Shown in pieces: positions 4,801 through 58,950 of a stretch of DNA of 64,000 nucleotides. Position 1 is the first letter of the stretch, and each line of letters begins with the position of its first letter. Under the pieces are notes generated by a model that saw only the letters and a list, made by a program, of their open reading frames with translations, was not told the DNA's origin and ran no database searches. The position numbers were made by a program, and so were the translations under genes. Source of the stretch: a phage; the sequence record PZ386955.1. One strand, written 5' to 3'.

Positions 4801-5232
4801 TTAATCAGTGAAAATTACACTTACATCTTCTTTAGAAAAGAGTTTATGATCTTCACCTTTTGTCTCAAGAGTTTCATACAGGTTAAGAAGTTCTGAAACA
4901 TCTTTCTCTACCAGTTTCTTCAATGTTGCAATTTTCTGTTTGCGACTCTTAATACGTTCAGCTACAACCTTACGTTGGTATCCAGCAGTACGATAACCTG
5001 AGAAAGTTACACCAGTGAGACTTGCAGTTACAGGATCGTAATGACGTTCAATCTGAAATTTATTAAAAGGTACAGCGTCATCACGAATAATCTTCCCACC
5101 ATTACTTACTTGACGAAGACCAGTAACTTGTTCTAGTCGTGCCATAGAAATCTTTGGAGACAGACCAGAGTCCAGGTTCATACCATTGTTAATCAGTGCT
5201 TTCAGGGTGATTTTGCTGTTCAGTGTACTCAT
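4801..5232 (-). CDS. hypothetical protein
   Basis: 143-aa ORF; GGAGGA SD upstream of ATG at 5232; 3' overlap with methyltransferase gene. Confidence 0.5.
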   Translation of the reverse strand: MSTLNSKITLKALINNGMNLDSGLSPKISMARLEQVTGLRQVSNGGKIIRDDAVPFNKFQIERHYDPVTASLTGVTFSGYRTAGYQRKVVAERIKSRKQKIATLKKLVEKDVSELLNLYETLETKGEDHKLFSKEDVSVIFTD

Positions 5233-5920
5233 TTAGTCGTTCCTCCGCTTGCTTAAAAATATTTACATCGGCTTCACAGCCTAAGTATTCTCTACCTGTT
5301 AAAAGTGCCGCAACTTGTGTTGTTGCACTTCCAGAGAAGAAGTCTAAGACTACATCTCCTTCGTTGGTGTGTATATTAATAAGGTCACAAAACAAAGTCA
5401 AGTGTTTTTGTGTTGGATGAAAACGATCTGCTCCTTGATAGATAGGATACTCAAACACACCCTTATGGTAGGAAGCATTGAAGGTTGGCTTAGAACCTTT
5501 AACACAAACAATAGCCATTTCTTTAGCGTTACTAAGGTAGTTAACACCACTGTTGATGGGTACAGGGTTTGTTTTAATCCATTCAATAGTACGGAACATA
5601 CGAAAACCAAGCGGTTCAAGGATTTCACGTAGCTCCTGGATCTTCCACATATCATACCAAACTATGCAAGTACCACCTTTTCTAAGCACCCTGTAGGCTT
5701 CTTTGAATACTTCTTTAAAGTAAGGAATATCTACAACATCCCAATCACCAAAGTTGTAAGATACACGGAATCTATCCGTATCTTTTCCAGTAGGCTCTCC
5801 AGACTGAAAATTTGTGTCACGAGAAATAGCATATGGTGGGTCAGTAAGAATCAAATCTACACTATTGCTTTCGAGGGTTTGCAGGTAGTTTAATGCAGTG
5901 TTGTTTACAAATTCGCTCAT
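5189..5920 (-). CDS. DNA N6-adenine (amino) methyltransferase, beta-class
   Basis: N-terminal DPPY motif (LILTDPPYAI) preceding FxGSGxT-type AdoMet motif (LDFFSGSATT); GAAGGAG SD. Confidence 0.85.
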   Translation of the reverse strand: MSEFVNNTALNYLQTLESNSVDLILTDPPYAISRDTNFQSGEPTGKDTDRFRVSYNFGDWDVVDIPYFKEVFKEAYRVLRKGGTCIVWYDMWKIQELREILEPLGFRMFRTIEWIKTNPVPINSGVNYLSNAKEMAIVCVKGSKPTFNASYHKGVFEYPIYQGADRFHPTQKHLTLFCDLINIHTNEGDVVLDFFSGSATTQVAALLTGREYLGCEADVNIFKQAEERLNEYTEQQNHPESTD

Positions 5921-5936
5921 TATATCTCCTTCAAAG

Positions 5937-5962
5937 AAAAGGAGCCGTTAGGCTCCTTATAT
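5937..5962 (-). terminator. rho-independent terminator
   Basis: Hairpin AAGGAGCC(TAAC)GGCTCCTT followed by TTTTCTTT on minus strand. Confidence 0.65.
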
Positions 5963-5980
5963 TCACACAATATTTAACTA

Positions 5981-6928
5981 TTAGAAACAGTGCAGGAAGT
6001 TTCGACCATACTGCAAACCAATAGGAGCAAATGGGATATCATCATCGAAATCTTGAACAACAGGTTCTGGTTCTTTCGGTGCTGGCTCTTTCTTCTCTAC
6101 TTTTTTAGTTTCTTTCTTAACTTCTTGTACTGGGGTAGACATTCCACGGATAGCAGCAGCTACTTTATCAGACAAAGCAAGAACTTCACGAGCAGCTTCA
6201 ATAATCTCTTCTGCCGTTACAGTTTTACCTGTATGATCACGACAAGCGTTAAGAATTGCGTGTCCAACTGAAGCACCAAGATCATAGTCAGTCACATCAA
6301 CGCCACGATCTTTAGCAATTTCAGCTTTCAGAGTAACAGTTGCAGATTGTACCACACCAGCCAAGTCGAAAGCATCACCTTTCACACCAGCACGTAGAAG
6401 CTCCAGAGCGCCGTTTACAGCGTGTCCTGTTTCAATCCCTACGGTATCACGTTTTTTGTAGTTAGGCTTGCTACCTTCGTTATTAGATGGCTTATTTCCA
6501 CCTTTTGAAGAAGATTGCGCTTGCTGAACACCTTCTGTTGAAAGAACAGTGATTTTACCTTTAGAGGAGTTGTAGTATGTTTTGCCATTCCATTCGGAAG
6601 GTTTAACATCCATAGTTAGTTCTACACCTTTTTCGATAGTAACCCACTTGTCACCATCTTTAACTTGCAGGTTTTCATGTTCTGGATGCAGTTTAACTTC
6701 ACCTAGGCTAACCCAAACACCTTTATCATCAGCACCAGCACCTTTCTCTTTAATAAGCAGAGATGCTTTGTGAGTTGATTCAATTTTCTTATCTGGCTGA
6801 CCTGCAACCTTAATATAAGAGACTTTCATTTCATCAAACTTATCCAGTTTGACATATTCAACGATACCTTCAGCCCAGAATGCTTCTTTTTTAGTACGAC
6901 GGTCGATTTCAGAATTAATTACTGGCAT
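5981..6928 (-). CDS. putative ssDNA-binding / replication accessory protein with SSB-like acidic DDDIPF motif
   Basis: 315 aa; Lys/Glu-rich linker then DFDDDIPF near C-terminus (SSB-tail hallmark, but 15 aa from the end). Confidence 0.35.
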   Translation of the reverse strand: MPVINSEIDRRTKKEAFWAEGIVEYVKLDKFDEMKVSYIKVAGQPDKKIESTHKASLLIKEKGAGADDKGVWVSLGEVKLHPEHENLQVKDGDKWVTIEKGVELTMDVKPSEWNGKTYYNSSKGKITVLSTEGVQQAQSSSKGGNKPSNNEGSKPNYKKRDTVGIETGHAVNGALELLRAGVKGDAFDLAGVVQSATVTLKAEIAKDRGVDVTDYDLGASVGHAILNACRDHTGKTVTAEEIIEAAREVLALSDKVAAAIRGMSTPVQEVKKETKKVEKKEPAPKEPEPVVQDFDDDIPFAPIGLQYGRNFLHCF

Positions 6929-6944
6929 AAATTCTCCTCTATAA

Positions 6945-7343
6945 TTACATTACTTTAACACAAAACTCTCGTAAAAGAGTAGCGTCAGTTTCTTCCAACA
7001 GGTATTTACCAAGACCAATACCAAATCCTATTTCACCACTTTCGAAATGGAGGATTTGTATCTTTTCTCCACCAAGGTTAATTACTTTTGCTTTTCCAGG
7101 ATTATCCAAAACATCTCGTATTGTATCCTGTAGTAGCATTAGTTCACGTTTTGTGATAGTGGTTTCAGATATCTCTTTGTTTTCTACTCTCACTGTTAAA
7201 CGATTGTATCCACCAAAGAGACATAGTATTTGAATAAAAAAGGTATTATCTTGAGGTTCAACATCTTTTTTAGTTAGCTCAAGACGATTAGTTTCTCTAC
7301 TATAGAACGTCTCGACTAAGATTTTAGAACGATTATCTGTCAT
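6945..7343 (-). CDS. hypothetical protein
   Basis: 132-aa ORF in co-directional gene block. Confidence 0.5.
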   Translation of the reverse strand: MTDNRSKILVETFYSRETNRLELTKKDVEPQDNTFFIQILCLFGGYNRLTVRVENKEISETTITKRELMLLQDTIRDVLDNPGKAKVINLGGEKIQILHFESGEIGFGIGLGKYLLEETDATLLREFCVKVM

Positions 7344-7386
7344 TCAAGTCCTCATAATAACACATAATTATAATGTTTGTCAACAC

Positions 7387-7980
7387 TTAAATTTTAAATT
7401 CTTCATTGTTAAATGAATCCAGTGTACGTACTTCTGGCTCTTTGGGAATGAAAACGTCTTTTACAAAGCGGAACATAGGGAAACGTTCTGCCATTTTACG
7501 GACGTGTGCTTCTTTACCTGTGTATCGGTGATTAATAGTACAAATATTAGTTTTCAGTGCAAATTCAAAATCTGGATGATATACATAATTTTGACCATCC
7601 CAGTAACACAAGCAAATAGCTACATCAAAGTTCCATACGATTTCACTGCGTACACCTTCTTCCATGATCATAAAGTTAAACTTAAGATCTTTATAGTATG
7701 CTTCAAATACCCATTTCAAATGTGGTAGTTCGGCATAAGTGTGTTCTGTTTGCTTAGTAAGTTGTTTAACATTACGTGCACCAACACCCAACATCAAAAA
7801 CTTCTCTACTAGCACGAGTGTATTGTGGTTAGGCATACGCAAGTAAATGTCAATGTCTTGTGCAGGTTTCTCTAATCGCCAATCACGTACAGCGCCGCCA
7901 GCTACAATTGCAAACGGATCTACCAGTTGGCACATACGTAATACTTCTAAAGCGCGTACTTTTTGATCTTCAATATTCAT
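7387..7980 (-). CDS. nucleotidyltransferase, pol-beta superfamily (CCA-adding / poly(A) polymerase head-domain type)
   Basis: GGAVRD...DIDI motif (hG[GS]-x12-DxD) at residues ~27-45; only 197 aa. Confidence 0.55.
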   Translation of the reverse strand: MNIEDQKVRALEVLRMCQLVDPFAIVAGGAVRDWRLEKPAQDIDIYLRMPNHNTLVLVEKFLMLGVGARNVKQLTKQTEHTYAELPHLKWVFEAYYKDLKFNFMIMEEGVRSEIVWNFDVAICLCYWDGQNYVYHPDFEFALKTNICTINHRYTGKEAHVRKMAERFPMFRFVKDVFIPKEPEVRTLDSFNNEEFKI

Positions 7981-8117
7981 ATTTTCTCCTATCTCTTATG
8001 GTCTTTGCGTTATTCTAGATGTTCAAACATCTAATTATGAAATGGTTTAAAAGTGTGGAACAACCTTGGCAATAACAGATTGTCCCACATAAAAACTCCT
8101 TTAAAATCAAATAGATA

Positions 8118-10697
8118 CTAGTGACAACTGGCCCATGAGTTACCAACATCGTAACCAGCAGTGAGAGGTACATTAAGATTGTAATACTCACCAGCTTTAT
8201 TAACAGCAATAGATGCTAATTCTCCAGCACGACTGTAGGCTGTAAACCAACCACCTTTCGGAGATTCATGTACGTTAGCCCAAATCTTGCCAGTACGTTT
8301 CTCTTCCTCTTCTTTCCAGGCATTAACTTTATCCAAACATTCTTTATCAATTTTCTTTTGTTCTTCTGGATCATCAACTTGAGTCCAACCTAAAGATTCT
8401 TTAGAGAACCATTTAAAATGCACCAGATCACGAGTTACTTCAAGCTGTGCTTCATCGTGGTATGCAATCATTTGTTGAACGAATGACTTATTTTTCCAGT
8501 CATCAACAAAAAAGTCAACAGCTAATCCTTCTTCTTCGATAAGATCGTCGTAGATAACCATTGCTCTTTTTGCACAAATAACACCACCACTCTGGAACAG
8601 AGAGTTAAGTATTGCGTGTGCAGATCGTGTAGGTACTTTTCTACCATCAATACCGAGAATGTATTTCTTACCTGTTTTAACCCAAAAATCATGCAGACGT
8701 TCTTTAAGAAGCGCAAGAGGTTTTGCAGCTTCCCAGAAAGCATCGTATACAAGCTGTCCTGTATACATATCACTACCAATAGTTTTTGCTACTTTTGCAG
8801 CTTGAGCACCATAAGTAATACCATACTTAACAGATTTAGCAGGGCTTCGTTCAAACTTACGACCAATAGTATCAGAAATACGTCGAGCCATCATTGTATG
8901 AACATCATTAGGTTTTTCCAACAATAGAGCATTACAATATTCGTGTGGTTCCTGCTCGTACCGCCAACAGTAGTGTGATTCTATTTTTGCCTCAAGAGAA
9001 TCAAAGTCATAACCAATTTGGAAGTATTTTGGAACTTCTACACCAAATAAGTTACGCATTTCATACCCGTACAAAGATGTTACACGTGGGATGTTTGCTA
9101 CTAACCTATGTTTCATACGAGACGTAGCTGCATCACACGTTGCAGCAGGAGTTGGTATACGACCATCAGCCCTTACTGCCGCCAGATACCCTTTATCATA
9201 ATCCTCTTCATCTTCTTCCCAATCAGCACCACCACCTAGAATAGAGTTTCTACGATGTTTATACGTAAGATACTGCACAATCTGCGTAGCATAAGGAAAC
9301 TTTTCACCTAGTGCTTCCAAGTTAGGACAAATATCCTTCTCTTGCCCTTTTGTAAAGGAAGGGTTAGTAAGCACTTTAACACCACGACCTTTAGCTTTAG
9401 CAATACGATCTCTTAGTTTCCATTCCAAAGTTTCTGGTGTGCACTCCAGATGATCACATCTATCCTGGCAGAAGTTAGATGCTAATGTTTGATCAACATA
9501 GTCACGAATAGCTTTCTCCATTTGTGCTTCATCTTTCTTAATCTTAGTGCCAGATTTAAGAGTGATATCTTTATCTTTATATTCAGATGGACTCCAACCT
9601 AAACCAACTAACCAATTTTTAATATGTGTAGTGTCATCTAAAGTAGCAGGTACTGTAGGATCACAAATAGGTTCTTCTGCTGGAATAGGTAGTTTAAACT
9701 CTTTACCTAATGCAAATAACCACCAACCATCTTCTTTTTGTACAAGTTCACCAGAATGTTTCTCTGCAAACTTTATCATGTTACTTGAAGGTTCACCATT
9801 CTTTTTAAACTGTAGTTTAGGTGGAATGAATGATTTCAAATAACCTTTAGTAGCAGGTTTAGGAGGTAGCACAGGTTCTGCCTCTAAACGACATGCTTCC
9901 ATTCGAGCATCCAGATCACGAATATTATCTTCTGCTTGTTTCATATTGAAAGCAAAGCCACGGTGCTCTTGACGTGTAATAATATCAGCTACACGTTGTT
10001 CTAAGTTAAATGGTTCAGACCACTTATTATAATCACCCCACTCTTCCATCAAATAACGGAACACTGCGGTGTTAGCTTTGTTATCGTAAATACAGTAATA
10101 CAGCATATCTGCTGCAAATGTTTTAAATCTTTCAGTTTCAGGAATGTTTTTTCTAAAATCAATTTTAACATCCCCTCCAGCTTTCTTAGATAACTCTGCC
10201 AGACTATGACCACCGAAGCGATCAGGGTTTAGTGTCTTACTTAAGATCATAGTATCACAAATTTCAATGTTACTATTACCCCAAGTATTGTACTTAATAC
10301 TGTAGTTGAGTTTAAAAAATAATTTAATTGCCAGTAAGTCGAAGTTAATGATGTTGTGTCCAACTACTTTGGTAATTTTATAGTTTGAATTACCTTTAAA
10401 TTTACCTGTTCCATTTACAAAATCAGGAAAATCTTTAAGAGGGAAATGGGTATATTCTAAATGCTCATATTCCTCCAGTCGGTATTCATACTTTCCGTCA
10501 GTCTCAATATACGGACGACCATCGAAAAGATATTTATCACCATCATGGAAAGCAATAATCTCTCCAGTATCATGACTTTCGCACACAATACAGTGCATTG
10601 CAAAACTATCTTTTAAACGATATGGACTTGCCAAGTAATCTACACTTTCGTCATTAAGCAAGTTGTTACTTTCAATGTCGAAAGTAAAAGCTCCCAT
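8118..10697 (-). CDS. DNA polymerase, family A, with 3'-5' exonuclease domain
   Basis: 859 aa; Exo I FDIES; motif A YDFDSLEAKI; motif B RSPAKSVKYGITYG; motif C YHDE. Confidence 0.9.
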   Translation of the reverse strand: MGAFTFDIESNNLLNDESVDYLASPYRLKDSFAMHCIVCESHDTGEIIAFHDGDKYLFDGRPYIETDGKYEYRLEEYEHLEYTHFPLKDFPDFVNGTGKFKGNSNYKITKVVGHNIINFDLLAIKLFFKLNYSIKYNTWGNSNIEICDTMILSKTLNPDRFGGHSLAELSKKAGGDVKIDFRKNIPETERFKTFAADMLYYCIYDNKANTAVFRYLMEEWGDYNKWSEPFNLEQRVADIITRQEHRGFAFNMKQAEDNIRDLDARMEACRLEAEPVLPPKPATKGYLKSFIPPKLQFKKNGEPSSNMIKFAEKHSGELVQKEDGWWLFALGKEFKLPIPAEEPICDPTVPATLDDTTHIKNWLVGLGWSPSEYKDKDITLKSGTKIKKDEAQMEKAIRDYVDQTLASNFCQDRCDHLECTPETLEWKLRDRIAKAKGRGVKVLTNPSFTKGQEKDICPNLEALGEKFPYATQIVQYLTYKHRRNSILGGGADWEEDEEDYDKGYLAAVRADGRIPTPAATCDAATSRMKHRLVANIPRVTSLYGYEMRNLFGVEVPKYFQIGYDFDSLEAKIESHYCWRYEQEPHEYCNALLLEKPNDVHTMMARRISDTIGRKFERSPAKSVKYGITYGAQAAKVAKTIGSDMYTGQLVYDAFWEAAKPLALLKERLHDFWVKTGKKYILGIDGRKVPTRSAHAILNSLFQSGGVICAKRAMVIYDDLIEEEGLAVDFFVDDWKNKSFVQQMIAYHDEAQLEVTRDLVHFKWFSKESLGWTQVDDPEEQKKIDKECLDKVNAWKEEEEKRTGKIWANVHESPKGGWFTAYSRAGELASIAVNKAGEYYNLNVPLTAGYDVGNSWASCH

Positions 10698-45743: not shown

Positions 45744-45960
45744 TATTTTGAAAATTTTTACTTTTATAAAAAGGGGTGTGGGTTTCATGTACGGAAATCC
45801 ACCCTCTGAATAATATATCCAGAGTAAATATTATTCTGTACTCTGTTAATAAAGTATTTAATTTGTTTGTTGGACTATGGTATCTGATCTTTAAAAGGCA
45901 TACTATCTCTTAACTACTATTTATAACAGAACAGTAAAATCATTTTTATAAAAAGGACAA

Positions 45961-46160
45961 AATTATTTAAAGTTTTTACAGATTTTTGGATACAAATTTT
46001 GAAAATGAAAAGTTCAAGTTTGGTCAAAATTATTTAAAGTTTTTGTACGTATTTCTATCCAGATTTTGAAAATGAAAACTTCAATTTTTTAAAAATTCCC
46101 CAGTTTATTTAAAGTTTTTTTGCCTTTTTCCGTAGAAAAATCAAAAATGAAAAGTTCAAT
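45961..46160. repeat. three tandem ~65-75-bp direct repeats
   Basis: Each unit has ATTATTTAAAGTTTTT then TTTGAAAATGAAAAGTTCAA (internal TTGAA/TTCAA inverted repeat). Confidence 0.7.
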
Positions 46161-46183
46161 TTCGTGTTTTTATAGGTGTGTGT

Positions 46184-46198
46184 ATGATAATCATTCTC
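46184..46198. promoter_or_regulatory. Fur-box-like palindrome within palindromic cluster
   Basis: ATGATAATCATTCTC vs Fur consensus ATGATAATCATTATC; followed by TCATTCTCAGTAAGAGAATGA and GAGAATTTTTCTC palindromes to 46250. Confidence 0.4.
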
Positions 46199-46477
46199 AG
46201 TAAGAGAATGAGAATCGTTAGCAAATGAGAATTTTTCTCATTTAGAGAATAACGCGCAGGGGTGGTGTTTGTCTCGCGCTCCCGTGTCCCCTCGCCATAC
46301 AATAAGAATAGCATAACCAACAACAAAAGCAAGCGATTATTTCTATCTTTACATTTCTTTACAAATTTATTTTAGACGAGCTACCGGCGATCAACCTTCC
46401 AACCAGTAGTGCCCTGGTATGTTAGCCCCGCCTTTACGCCGTGGGGGTGGCGCTTCCTCTTCTGTATGTAAAACAGT

Positions 46478-46500
46478 ATAAGCCCGATCCCTGGGCTTGT
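46478..46500 (-). terminator. possible rho-independent terminator
   Basis: Hairpin AAGCCCAGGGATCGGGCTT downstream of minus-strand ORF. Confidence 0.4.
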
Positions 46501-46505
46501 CAAGA

Positions 46506-46772
46506 TTATTTTTTGTTTTCTTGCCAGGATAGGACACCTAACCAAAAATACATGTCGCCCCGCGCCCCTGGCGGGATCTTGCTTTCCCCGCCGCCACTGC
46601 AAGCCCATAGATAACCATTTGCGAACGTATCAAAATGATCTATCTCTTCCACCTTATGATCGCCCAGGTTGAGAACGGTTTCAACCTTTAAGCCCGTTGC
46701 GCTTGCTACCTGGTGCACCGTGCCGCCTTGCCAGCCCAATGAGTGCATAAGGTGTAAAGTAGTATTTGTCAT
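46506..46772 (-). CDS. hypothetical protein encoded in GC-rich island
   Basis: 88-aa ORF with AAGGG SD, own promoter and terminator; GC-rich codon usage. Confidence 0.4.
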   Translation of the reverse strand: MTNTTLHLMHSLGWQGGTVHQVASATGLKVETVLNLGDHKVEEIDHFDTFANGYLWACSGGGESKIPPGARGDMYFWLGVLSWQENKK

Positions 46773-48442: not shown

Positions 48443-48986
48443 ATATGTGATCCAGTCCTGGGTAAAGCATGATGCTGATGATCCGCGCATAATACCAGAT
48501 GACATGATCGATCACATGGTAGGGTATAGCGGGGAGCAGATAGGAAATCGAGCGGCAAAGAGCAACGGTCACACAAAAACGCGATCCGTTCGCCCTGGTT
48601 GGCTGGCAAATGGTAACGCTGACATTGCAAGCGCCGCAGATCCAAGCGATGACGCTAAAAATAATCCCTTATACAGCATTGATCCGGCTTTTAAGGTGTT
48701 AGAAGAGTATCCCGCTAAATTAGCCGCACTAGATAAGGCATACGAAGAAAAGCGCATGGCATGGACGGTATACAACACCGCTAAGATGGTGCTAGATGCA
48801 AAATTGATTAAAGCCCAGGAGAAGATCAATAAACTTGTTACCATAGCGCAAGAGGAAGACCAGGACGACCAGGAGGAAGAGGAAGAAATCATGCCTACCC
48901 TGGAAGAGGAAGAGATCCAGCCATACATGCCGACGGAAGAGGAAAAAAGACAAGCTCTAAAAAATTATGAAAATTGTGTTGTGTAA
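48432..48986 (+). CDS. hypothetical protein with poly-acidic C-terminus
   Basis: C-terminal QEEDQDDQEEEEEIMPTLEEEEIQPYMPTEEE. Confidence 0.5.
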   Translation: MGREYVIQSWVKHDADDPRIIPDDMIDHMVGYSGEQIGNRAAKSNGHTKTRSVRPGWLANGNADIASAADPSDDAKNNPLYSIDPAFKVLEEYPAKLAALDKAYEEKRMAWTVYNTAKMVLDAKLIKAQEKINKLVTIAQEEDQDDQEEEEEIMPTLEEEEIQPYMPTEEEKRQALKNYENCVV

Positions 48987-56807: not shown

Positions 56808-57191
56808 ATGAGCAATATCATCAACCTGGCGGCTACTGTAAACGGTAAAGATTTTAACGGCGCTGTAGATCGTGATCCTATGTGGTGCTTATCAGTGTTT
56901 AAAGGCGATCTGGTTGAAGTTAGAACAACCGAAGGTTATAGCGACGATTATAAATGCGAGATTCATTTACACAACTGGTACACGGGTAAAACTTATGCGC
57001 TGAATCATGCGTTTATCGGGAAAATTGAATATCGCGAGATGATCGACGAGGAAACCGGGCAAGATTTTAGCGAAAACGTTTATATTCGTTCCGAGACATT
57101 AGCCGAACGTTTGATCGAGAAGATGAAAGCAAAAAATAAAATTAATTTAGCTCATTGGATTGATATAACAAACGATCCAGCTTATCAATAA
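56808..57191 (+). CDS. hypothetical protein
   Basis: Start at ATG 56808 (ACGAGGAA SD). Confidence 0.5.
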   Translation: MSNIINLAATVNGKDFNGAVDRDPMWCLSVFKGDLVEVRTTEGYSDDYKCEIHLHNWYTGKTYALNHAFIGKIEYREMIDEETGQDFSENVYIRSETLAERLIEKMKAKNKINLAHWIDITNDPAYQ

Positions 57192-57206
57192 ATAACATTT
57201 CACACC

Positions 57207-57232
57207 AGGGCGCACAAAGCGCCCTTTCTTTT
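57207..57232 (+). terminator. rho-independent terminator
   Basis: Hairpin AGGGCGC(ACAA)AGCGCCCT + TTCTTTT. Confidence 0.7.
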
Positions 57233-57440
57233 ACCTCAATAAAGATGATAGCTTTTACCTATCAAAAACGTTCACCGAAAAAAGTGAATAGATCGCGGTA
57301 TCGAGCTAATCAAGGAGCAGATGAACAACCATACCATGAAGATCATAAGGCGCTTACAACGCGTTTTAGACCGCTTGTTTTTAATTTCTCCATGTAACTA
57401 TCTGGCAAAAACAGCCTTTTTCTTGTCTTTCCTCTTAAAT

Positions 57441-57456
57441 AATAATCATTCTCATT
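57441..57456. promoter_or_regulatory. Fur-box-like half-palindrome
   Basis: AATAATCATTCTCATT. Confidence 0.35.
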
Positions 57457-57492
57457 TGTAGCTGATTATTTATGCAATAAACTGAATAATGC

Positions 57493-57510
57493 AATAATGA
57501 TAATCATTCT
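57493..57510. promoter_or_regulatory. Fur-box-like palindrome
   Basis: AATAATGATAATCATTCT (16/19 to GATAATGATAATCATTATC). Confidence 0.45.
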
Positions 57511-58362
57511 TAACTTAAGACCATCTAACCTATAAAATAATAAGCTATCTAACTAAATTAAAGCTAATTATCTCACCTTTATTTATAACTTACTGTTACT
57601 ATCTCATTGATAACCTTATATTAAACAACAATAACTAATATAAATCATTACCAAGCTAAAGATAAGCTATCTAACCTTTAAAACTATAACTATAATCTAT
57701 CGAATTGTTGCACAAAGTAACTATTAAATTGTTAGTAACATTACTAAATAATTAATATCCTATCTATTTATGATCTAATCTTTACCTTCCTATCTATTAC
57801 CTAAATAATCATTTCATACAATAACTATAACAAGAAATATAATTCGCAAGCGTATCATTAGCAGCCTATGCCGGACACATAGGCGGCTAATAATAACGCA
57901 ACTACACACCCCACATAATAACCATCACCGATAGTTATTATTTGTGCTTATGTAGCTTGCAACAATTGCAAGCGCAACAATATACATGGTATATTGTATC
58001 CCTTACATTGTTGCGGTGCGTTATTATTAGCTAATGTTTAGAACATTGGCTATAATATAAGCTATCCAATAATAATAAGCTATACAATAATAAACATAGT
58101 GAATAATGACCCCCGATGATCATAATGCGCCACCTTCCAGGGGGCGCTATGTGAACACAAAGAAACCTTTCTTGTCAAGAAAAATATTGCCACTATTGCG
58201 CAAAATTATTTATATCTGAATAGATGATTTTTCATACTATTGCCCCCAATACTATCCCTATTTGTTGCCCTAACTATTGTCATTTGTTGAGCCTACTTTC
58301 TTAAAAGCGCAATAAATCAGAATTATCTTGATTTTTAGGGCGTTTTATAGTATAGAAAATAT

Positions 58363-58381
58363 GCAAATGATAATCATTATC
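58363..58381. promoter_or_regulatory. Fur-box-like palindrome
   Basis: GCAAATGATAATCATTATC: 16 contiguous identities to Fur consensus; just downstream of TTGATT...TATAGA promoter-like site. Confidence 0.5.
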
Positions 58382-58548
58382 AGCTATCTTCCACGGGTGG
58401 CACTATTTCACGCAGGATCATTTCATTTGGCAAGGTGTATATAGATGTTTAGACTTGCCAAGCCATTGATTTACTTAGAATTTATCTGTTTTGTTGTGAG
58501 TAGTACCTTTCTTGCTCAGAAAATAATCAAAAGTCTTATAAGTCATTG

Positions 58549-58579
58549 AATGATAATGCAAATGATAATTATTCTCATT
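58549..58579. promoter_or_regulatory. tandem Fur-box-like palindromes
   Basis: GAATGATAATGCAAATGATAATTATTCTCATT. Confidence 0.45.
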
Positions 58580-58950
58580 GATATTTGAGGGGGACGGTCG
58601 GCAGAAATCGGGGGGCGCTGAAAATCGCGTTAAGCACCTCTCGCAAGCGAGCAGTATTTTGCGGCAAGTTATTGATATTATTGACTTTACGCTTATGAAA
58701 AGGGGGTGTGTCGAAATAAATCGGGTATACCGGAAAAATTTTGTGGCATAGATATTTATTTGTCTATATTATGTACAAAGGGGTGTGTTAAAAATAATAG
58801 GTATATATAGAATAATTGATAGGGAATACCTATACTAATTCCTATACTAAATCCTTCATTAATGATGTTTCTATGGTGCTGTTCTTGTAATAGATGAAAA
58901 GACGCTGTATGATGTGTGGCATGAAACGTAAATTTATAAAGGAGTCTGAT

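Follow-up and report, generated by a model that had tools for sequence, protein, structure and literature searches.

This study concerns a 64-kb stretch of DNA (referred to throughout as the window) from a virulent, strictly lytic phi92-like coliphage, a myovirus of the genus Justusliebigvirus (Stephanstirmvirinae), and a set of palindromes in its non-coding DNA that closely resemble the operator of Fur, the iron sensor of the host. Four of the five sites lie within 57200-58900, a region that is 92-95% identical to the corresponding DNA of around 50 Escherichia and Salmonella Justusliebigvirus myoviruses and that appears, in the annotated relatives, as a gene-free gap of 1.7 kb. On its left this gap is flanked by the last gene, a homologue of phi92 gp248 (T4 gp30.8 family) that ends at 57191, and on its right by the first of the small early genes, phi92 gp001 onward; the small early genes on either side of the junction are orientated for rightward transcription. 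The record for Salmonella phage UAB_1 keeps the physical ends of the genome, which take the form of a 343-bp direct terminal repeat (PMC11350853), and a repeat of 342 bp has been reported, via PhageTerm, for a second member of the genus, phage BME3 (PMC12210895). The UAB_1 repeat aligns without gaps to 58290-58632 of the window, which identifies the 1.7-kb gap as the point at which the genome ends join; the left end reads AGCCTAC... from 58290. Two clusters of Fur-box-like palindromes, C1 and C2, are situated within this repeat, and the features referred to in the text are as follows.

58357..58382, no strand assigned: site C1, with GCAAATGATAATCATTATC at 58363-58381 and a perfect 7-1-7 palindrome, TGATAATCATTATCA, at 58368-58382
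58552..58582, no strand assigned: site C2, GATAATGCAAATGATAATTATTCTCATTGAT, with three overlapping matrix matches at 6-bp steps (20.0, 22.6 and 19.7 bits)
57435..57459, no strand assigned: site B1, TTAAATAATAATCATTCTCATTTGT, with two overlapping matrix matches at a 6-bp offset (19.1 and 21.5 bits)
57487..57511, no strand assigned: site B2, AATAATGATAATCATTCTT at 57493-57511, with 16/19 identities to the consensus (22.6 bits)
46180..46245, no strand assigned: locus A, three adjacent Fur-box-like palindromes with centres at 46192, 46216 and 46233
58328..58356, plus strand: promoter-like element read from the sequence, with a -35 of TTGATT (58328-58333), a 17-bp spacer and a -10-like TATAGA (58351-58356)
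58290..58632, plus strand: region corresponding to the 343-bp direct terminal repeat, and so to the physical genome ends, by homology to the annotated UAB_1 repeat
57207..57225, plus strand: intrinsic terminator that closes the last gene (the phi92 gp248 homologue) ahead of the non-coding junction

The likeness to the Fur box is closest at C1, where 17 of the 19 positions are identical to the consensus GATAATGATAATCATTATC and 16 of these are contiguous; C2 has 15/19 identities to the same consensus. A preliminary description of this DNA had drawn attention to such palindromes, and all of the sequences that it quoted are present where it had placed them, with the run of 16 contiguous identities at 58363-58381 being fully borne out. 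C1 lies 85 bp inside the left boundary of the terminal repeat and C2 about 65 bp (50-80 bp) inside the right boundary, with a spacing of ~190 bp between the two, whilst B1 is found ~230 bp downstream of the last gene's terminator. Locus A occupies the non-coding gap 45744-46380, where the right-arm block of small early genes begins, and its palindromes score 15.9 (46180), 16.1 (46204) and 16.5 bits (46221), with partners at a 6-bp offset. It is flanked by three 60-bp direct repeats and a G+C-rich segment. The repeats (AAATTATTTAAAGTTTTT...GATTTTGAAAATGAAAAGTTCAA), each of ~60 bp, run from 45960 to 46150 immediately to the left of locus A and are iteron-like in appearance. The G+C-rich segment (46250-46620) is non-coding and gave no match in Rfam, and a strong leftward promoter-like sequence, TTGACA-17-TATACT (46503-46475), is directed at locus A.

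The scores given here derive from a weight matrix of 19 columns that was trained by iterative refinement on 16 Fur-repressed promoter regions of E. coli K-12 MG1655 only (fepA-fes, fepD-entS, fepB-entC, fhuA, cirA, fecA, fecI, fiu, tonB, exbB, fur, ryhB, fhuE, fhuF, sufA and feoA), and the consensus of the trained matrix is the textbook Fur box. All 11 of the top matrix hits in the window fall in the five loci listed above. C1 (58363) reaches 26.4 bits out of a maximum possible 27.7 (16.0 on the reverse strand) and exceeds every one of the 16 training sites, which score 13.9-24.0 bits compared with 15.9-26.4 bits for the sites in the window. At a threshold of 18 bits, seven positions were observed in the window against 0.34 expected from dinucleotide shuffles of the same DNA. 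All seven of these positions lie within 57200-58893, for which AT-matched shuffles of the region give an expectation of 0.018, and none of 2000 shuffles equalled the observed count. Matches to the consensus with three mismatches or fewer numbered three (at two sites), where 0.04 would be expected. Hits of at least 18 bits were absent both from 124 kb of E. coli control DNA outside the training promoters and from 50 kb of T4 DNA (34% G+C and rich in early promoters), in which the maximum was 15.4 bits. Matrix scoring against a shuffled AT-rich background was a check set beforehand in the preliminary description, and the palindromes come through it well beyond chance. Taken together, the matrix scores, the shuffles and the control DNA strongly support an excess of Fur-box-like palindromes, and the probability that chance explains these sites is negligible.

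The composition and layout of the sites also follow what is known of Fur recognition. In the crystal structure of Fur with DNA, a 19-bp box takes two dimers, Arg57 reads a G and a C, and Tyr56 reads thymines (PMC4506495). The G and the C read by Arg57 are both retained in five of the seven palindromes in the window, with B1 having A in place of the G and B2 having T in place of the C. The 7-1-7 pattern TGATAATnATTATCA is present without mismatch at 58368-58382 and with one or two mismatches at 46185, 57440, 57498 and 58563. Overlapping matches at a 6-bp offset occur at 57435/57441, 58357/58363, 58552/58558/58564, 46180/46186 and 46221/46227, and overlap at this offset is the arrangement of natural Fur clusters (PMC2189734). 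An enrichment analysis of 8-mers that made no use of Fur as a prior also recovered the motif, in the form of AATGAGAA, ATGATAAT and GCAAATGA.

Three other approaches were set aside. An expectation-maximisation search for de novo motifs in two non-coding regions collapsed onto G-rich composition, and an exact 16-mer scan of viral contigs returned at least 120 scattered matches, which is uninformative at that database size. The Zur box, which we take to be GAAATGTTATAWTATAACATTTC with the core GTTATAWTATAAC, was rejected on that core: when it is set against the phage consensus CAAATGAGAATCATTCTCATTTG by eye, the two agree in the flanks AAATG and CATTT and differ at 8 of the 11 positions between these flanks.

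The sites are conserved among relatives of the phage. We assembled the complete UAB_1 genome (147,769 bp), and every hit of at least 19 bits in it falls in three non-coding loci, which are the same as those of the window. The first is the terminal repeat, with sites at positions 74-92 and 263-293 at both ends of the genome; the second, at 146582-146658, follows the last gene; and the third, at 136041-136158, stands at the head of the right-arm early block and consists of five tandem palindromes (18.7-25.2 bits), compared with which the three of locus A in the window are two units fewer. A comparison across genera was made with Phapecoctavirus, represented by phAPEC8, Klebsiella phage ZCKP1 and ukendt; identity across the junction between the window and phAPEC8 is ~51%. 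The core of B1 is kept in that genus as TGCAATGATAACCATTATC (20.1 bits) between diverged flanks, and C1 is kept as AAATAATAATCATTCTCA. The 19-bp core of C2, AATGATAATTATTCTCATT, is identical there and is displaced by exactly 6 bp relative to the conserved flanks, whilst B2 is kept within Justusliebigvirus and is degenerate in Phapecoctavirus. The positions of C1 and C2, and the rough spacing between them, are maintained across genera. More distant relatives (61-81% identity in a neighbouring protein) have differently placed copies, which lie in intergenic gaps of the early region. The use of the upstream gene as a locus marker in distant phages was dropped, given that the T4 gp30.8 family is widespread (1049 records).

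Further phages were reached by BLAST with the 40 bases around C1. The T5-like phage DT571/2 carries five palindromes, scoring 20-22 bits, between 6966 and 7584, where its left terminal region is non-coding, and one of them is a perfect 25-mer, TCAAATGAGAATCATTCTCATTTGA. In T5 itself (AY587007.1), the annotated copies 1-4 of 'direct repeat C' (DRC) and the palindromes E, G, H and I, at 9470-9633, are Fur-box-like, with the form TTAAATGAGAATCATTATCATTTGC and scores of 17.5-24.3 bits. This array lies a little way left of the 7.9% nick, from which its end is 30 bp away, and it spans the calculated shear point for first-step transfer at 9618. The paper on the T5 shear point considers DnaA boxes and not Fur (bioRxiv 10.1101/866236). 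In the Klebsiella jumbo phage Muenster (MT708547.1, RaK2-like), whose terminal repeat is 20 kb long, six palindromes scoring 19.4-25.2 bits lie at 787-2446 of that repeat, where they occupy the non-coding leader and the first intergenic gaps. Phage lambda (J02459.1) has GTAGATGATAATCATTATCACTTTA at 48447-48471 (19.5 and 20.4 bits), which is 35-55 bp from the right cohesive end and to the left of R4/cosQ. Two incidental observations belong here: a 20-bit site within the dmp gene (228-252) was seen in the comparison of T5 and DT571/2, and BLAST gave matches similar to the lambda site near the ends of HK630, phi80 (in the annotated cosQ/R4 region) and PY54.

It is possible, although we are doubtful enough to offer this only tentatively, that virulent enterobacterial phages of unrelated groups (phi92-like, T5-like and RaK2-like) have convergently acquired, and conserve, arrays of host Fur operators as a cis-element of their terminal repeats. 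If so, the T5 DRC and palindromes E-I would be Fur boxes, and Fur might either play a structural part at the entering or maturing DNA end or be a target, bound up by the phage to make the cell take in iron for the synthesis of phage DNA.

The distribution of the palindrome also bears on which protein is likely to bind it. A tblastn search with E. coli Fur found no Fur homologue in the UAB_1 genome or in the window (best E-value 3.7), and a Pfam scan of ten flanking early proteins found no DNA-binding domain. When the first 50 kb of T5, which include all of its pre-early genes, were compared with UAB_1, these being the two phages covered by the comparison of shared proteins, no matching pre-early or DNA-binding protein was found, and the open reading frames in common encode only housekeeping-type proteins. 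A captured host promoter was ruled out, with no E. coli homologue of the terminal repeat being found around C1. Since three lineages with different proteins share a host range and the palindrome, a host protein, namely Fur, is the likely partner. We think it very probable that Fur binds these sites, given that the three leading readings considered below all involve it.

A different candidate would be an early regulator encoded by the phage whose specificity overlaps that of the Fur box. The phage consensus does reach past the 19-mer, to about CAAATGAGAATCATTCTCATTTG, and a DNA-binding protein could be concealed among the early genes around the sites, none of which has an assigned function. However, the extended flank, GCAAAT, is itself frequent in Fur operators of E. 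coli, where it forms the first hexamer of those at fepA-fes, cirA, tonB and fhuE. A regulator of this kind is also difficult to reconcile with a motif that is common to three unrelated lineages, when UAB_1 has no early protein in common with the T5 DNA compared and the phage has no homologue of Fur, and a near-optimal Fur box would in any case be taken by the abundant host Fur. We therefore regard a phage-encoded regulator as improbable. Both possibilities had been raised in the preliminary description; the three unrelated lineages lead us to prefer host Fur, whilst the regulatory or titrating function proposed there is still something that we infer.

The setting of C1 is where such a function might be most readily envisaged. 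The preliminary description had noted a promoter-like TTGATT...TATAGA just upstream of the 58363 site, and the sequence is indeed present there, 39-67 bp from the left genome end. Its spacing would put the start of transcription near 58363, such that C1 would span ~+1 to +19. The accompanying suggestion that links the site to the genes of a paralogous family, upstream of which it was said to lie, is weak, given that the first gene starts ~500 bp downstream of it. Seven genomes from two genera all have the -35-like sequence CTTGATTT, just upstream of C1, without variation. No terminator, Rfam family or conserved hairpin was found after the promoter-like element. A Fur-repressed small RNA in the terminal repeat was considered and rejected, there being no Rfam match and no terminator, and the hairpin at 58427-58461 is not kept in Phapecoctavirus. 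The 'promoters' annotated with PHIRE in phAPEC8 are a separate motif, GTAGGGCGGCAATGGTGCCG.

The reading that we favour, with confidence that is evenly balanced, is that the palindromes are operators for host Fur and that C1 is an iron-responsive operator at a promoter in the terminal repeat. A near-consensus 19-mer binds Fur with Fe2+ tightly. Iron-loaded Fur dimers would be expected to bind, at least two to a cluster and on opposite helical faces, in the manner of natural E. coli operators, and the terminal and early non-coding DNA of the phage would fall under the iron status of the host. With C1 across the start point, cells replete with iron would repress the transcript and iron starvation would release it, and C2 (some 190 bp downstream), B1, B2 and locus A would add to the occupancy by Fur. 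A likely side effect would be that hundreds of replicated phage genomes tie up a considerable part of the Fur in the cell.

A number of observations weigh against this interpretation. The -10 element varies between genomes (TATAGA, TACAGA and TAATAA) and always lacks the usual final T; TATAGA is not kept even in close relatives, with inny and UAB_1 having TACAGA; and a scan for consensus promoters did not list the promoter-like element at C1. Given this variable, T-less -10 and the absence from the consensus scan, the promoter at C1 is to be taken as putative. No recognisable promoter was found at B1, at B2 (both of which follow the terminator), at locus A or at the T5 array, and these promoter-less sites fit a role away from promoters at least as well. 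Since good growth on K-12 is seen for these phages in rich media replete with iron, Fur could not wholly block an essential early transcript. It should also be borne in mind that the weight matrix was seeded with the literature consensus.

One role away from promoters would be that of a sponge, in which the arrays mainly sequester host Fur as phage DNA accumulates and any local effect on a promoter is secondary. The Fur pool comprises ~5,000-10,000 molecules per cell, and multicopy Fur boxes are well known to titrate Fur, which is the basis of the Fur titration assay. The packaged genome has 9-11 palindromes, with ~16 dimer sites. The Fur regulon might then be derepressed even in iron-replete cells, bringing about iron uptake, RyhB-mediated iron sparing and expression of the Mn-dependent NrdEF, and this would supply iron-dependent enzymes of the phage. 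Such enzymes do exist: the ribonucleotide reductases encoded by UAB_1 include iron-dependent enzymes of classes Ia and III, DT571/2 is annotated with both classes, and the T5 record lists a class Ia beta chain, all of which provides these phages with a motive for raising the iron supply. The sites are near consensus and score above natural operators, several of them lie away from promoters, the copy number of the tandem array varies (five units in UAB_1 compared with three in the window), and each genome has C1 and C2 twice by virtue of the terminal repeat, as might suit sequestration. On the other hand, a sponge has no need of fixed positions, yet those of C1 and C2 and the spacing between them are held across genera, and no titration would be possible early in infection when a single genome is present. 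In T5-like phages, moreover, derepressed outer-membrane iron receptors would act as decoys for the progeny. We consider it unlikely that sequestration, and the derepression that would follow from it, is the main role of the arrays.

The proximity of several sites to DNA ends raises the further alternative of an architectural role, in which Fur or another host factor would bend or bridge the DNA near the repeat boundaries and so aid cutting by terminase, synapsis of the repeats or controlled entry of the DNA. This alternative is drawn by analogy with integration host factor (IHF) at lambda cos and with a proposal made for the injection stop region of T5. The distances of C1 and C2 from the two repeat boundaries (85 and 65 bp) are in keeping with it, as are the position of the T5 array over the shear point and 30 bp from the nick, the position of the 20-bit lambda site 35-55 bp from cosN beside cosQ/R4, and the location of the Muenster array in the non-coding leader of the terminal repeat. 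Locus A, however, is 12 kb from the end, B1 and B2 are ~800 bp away, the Muenster array begins 0.8 kb and extends to 2.4 kb from the end, and distant relatives have copies between early genes. The lambda site is a single post hoc hit with a BLAST E of ~0.6. The terminases of these phage lineages are not known to be related, which also counts against a shared architectural function. On balance, an architectural role seems to us somewhat less likely still than that of a sponge, and control of a terminal-repeat promoter by host Fur remains the reading that we prefer.

Several other features of the junction were observed in the course of this work. Both boundaries of the terminal repeat precede AGC, with TGTTG^AGCC on the left (58285-58295) and GCGTTA^AGCAC on the right (58627-58637), and these motifs are kept across genera and are candidates for the cutting motifs of the terminase. 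A block of three hairpins at 57861-57975 is likewise kept across genera; its first hairpin, ATTAGC-A-GCCTATG...CATAGGC-G-GCTAAT, has compensatory changes in Phapecoctavirus (GCC/GGC to CGC/GCG), and the block may represent an end-region element of structured DNA or RNA. Copies of the motif AAAGGGGTGTGT(N)AAATAATnGG recur at 45770-45781, 58587-58611, 58700-58724 and 58777-58801, the last of them being kept in Phapecoctavirus, and GGGGTGTG is the top enriched 8-mer of the non-coding regions. The short repeat ATAAGCTATCTAAC has four to five copies in the AT-rich part of the junction (57537-57552, 57659-57674 and 58054-58092), where one relative has an annotated repeat_region, and AGATCGCGGTATCGAGCTAATCAA (57290-57313) is near-invariant between the genera amid diverged non-coding DNA.

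The right end of the terminal repeat also has a counterpart in bacterial chromosomes, with 48 bp at 58574-58621 showing 87.5% identity to 40 E. coli chromosomes. The match, at 2501-2548 of the E. coli segment compared, comes straight after a recombinase-family gene and beside a GmrSD-type restriction gene. Four records labelled 'Campylobacter phage' (MG065639.1, MG065645.1, MG065656.1 and MG065689.1) are 93% identical to this coliphage region and are probably mislabelled or contaminant assemblies. No tRNA genes were found in the window.

A lytic phage whose terminal repeat and early leader contain predicted Fur operators of high affinity, as appears to be the case in two other unrelated phage groups, would have consequences beyond this genus. 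If Fur does bind, then either the early events of the phage or the iron economy of the host would be wired to the host's own iron sensor. This would have a bearing on phage therapy, given the iron starvation of bacteria in host tissues. Binding would also provide a concrete candidate protein for the injection-stop repeats of T5, the function of which has been open for decades. A full-text search of the literature turned up no description of Fur boxes from virulent phages, terminal repeats or T5, and there is a substantial chance that these sites reflect a use of host Fur that is more widespread among large lytic phages and has so far not been described.

Compared with known systems, the phage sites closely resemble the chromosomal Fur operators of E. 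coli (fhuF, fepB-entC, fepD-entS, cirA and ryhB among others), with which they share the 19-bp consensus, the 7-1-7 core, the contacted G and C and the 6-bp overlaps. They differ in belonging to a virulent phage and in lying in non-coding DNA at the genome ends rather than upstream of iron-uptake genes; the closest phage site is nearer to the consensus than any of the 16 E. coli operators, and several phage sites have no recognisable promoter. To our knowledge, phage-borne Fur boxes have been known only ahead of bacterial-type cargo genes in temperate phages. One such box lies upstream of stx1 in Shiga-toxin phages. Another, in lambdoid coliphages, lies upstream of the sitABCD cargo (PMC6969025). 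The likeness in these cases is that of a host Fur operator carried on phage DNA, but the cargo boxes regulate a bacterial-type operon from a prophage, whereas here the phage is strictly lytic, the arrays are in the terminal repeat and early leader, and there is no iron-related cargo gene. Plasmids of the Fur titration assay offer a parallel in that many high-affinity boxes on a replicating element lower the level of free Fur; those plasmids are a laboratory artefact, whereas the phage arrays are natural and titration by them is a proposal. A counterpart among phages is found in T5, whose left terminal repeat contains, in Repeat Region 3, the DRC together with palindromes E, G, H and I; there the same palindrome is again arrayed in non-coding DNA within the terminal repeat of a virulent coliphage. 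These T5 repeats are unexplained in the literature consulted, in which DnaA boxes and not Fur have been discussed, and they differ from those described here in belonging to another virus family and to a 10-kb repeat, with the array placed at the internal end of that repeat by the 7.9% nick.

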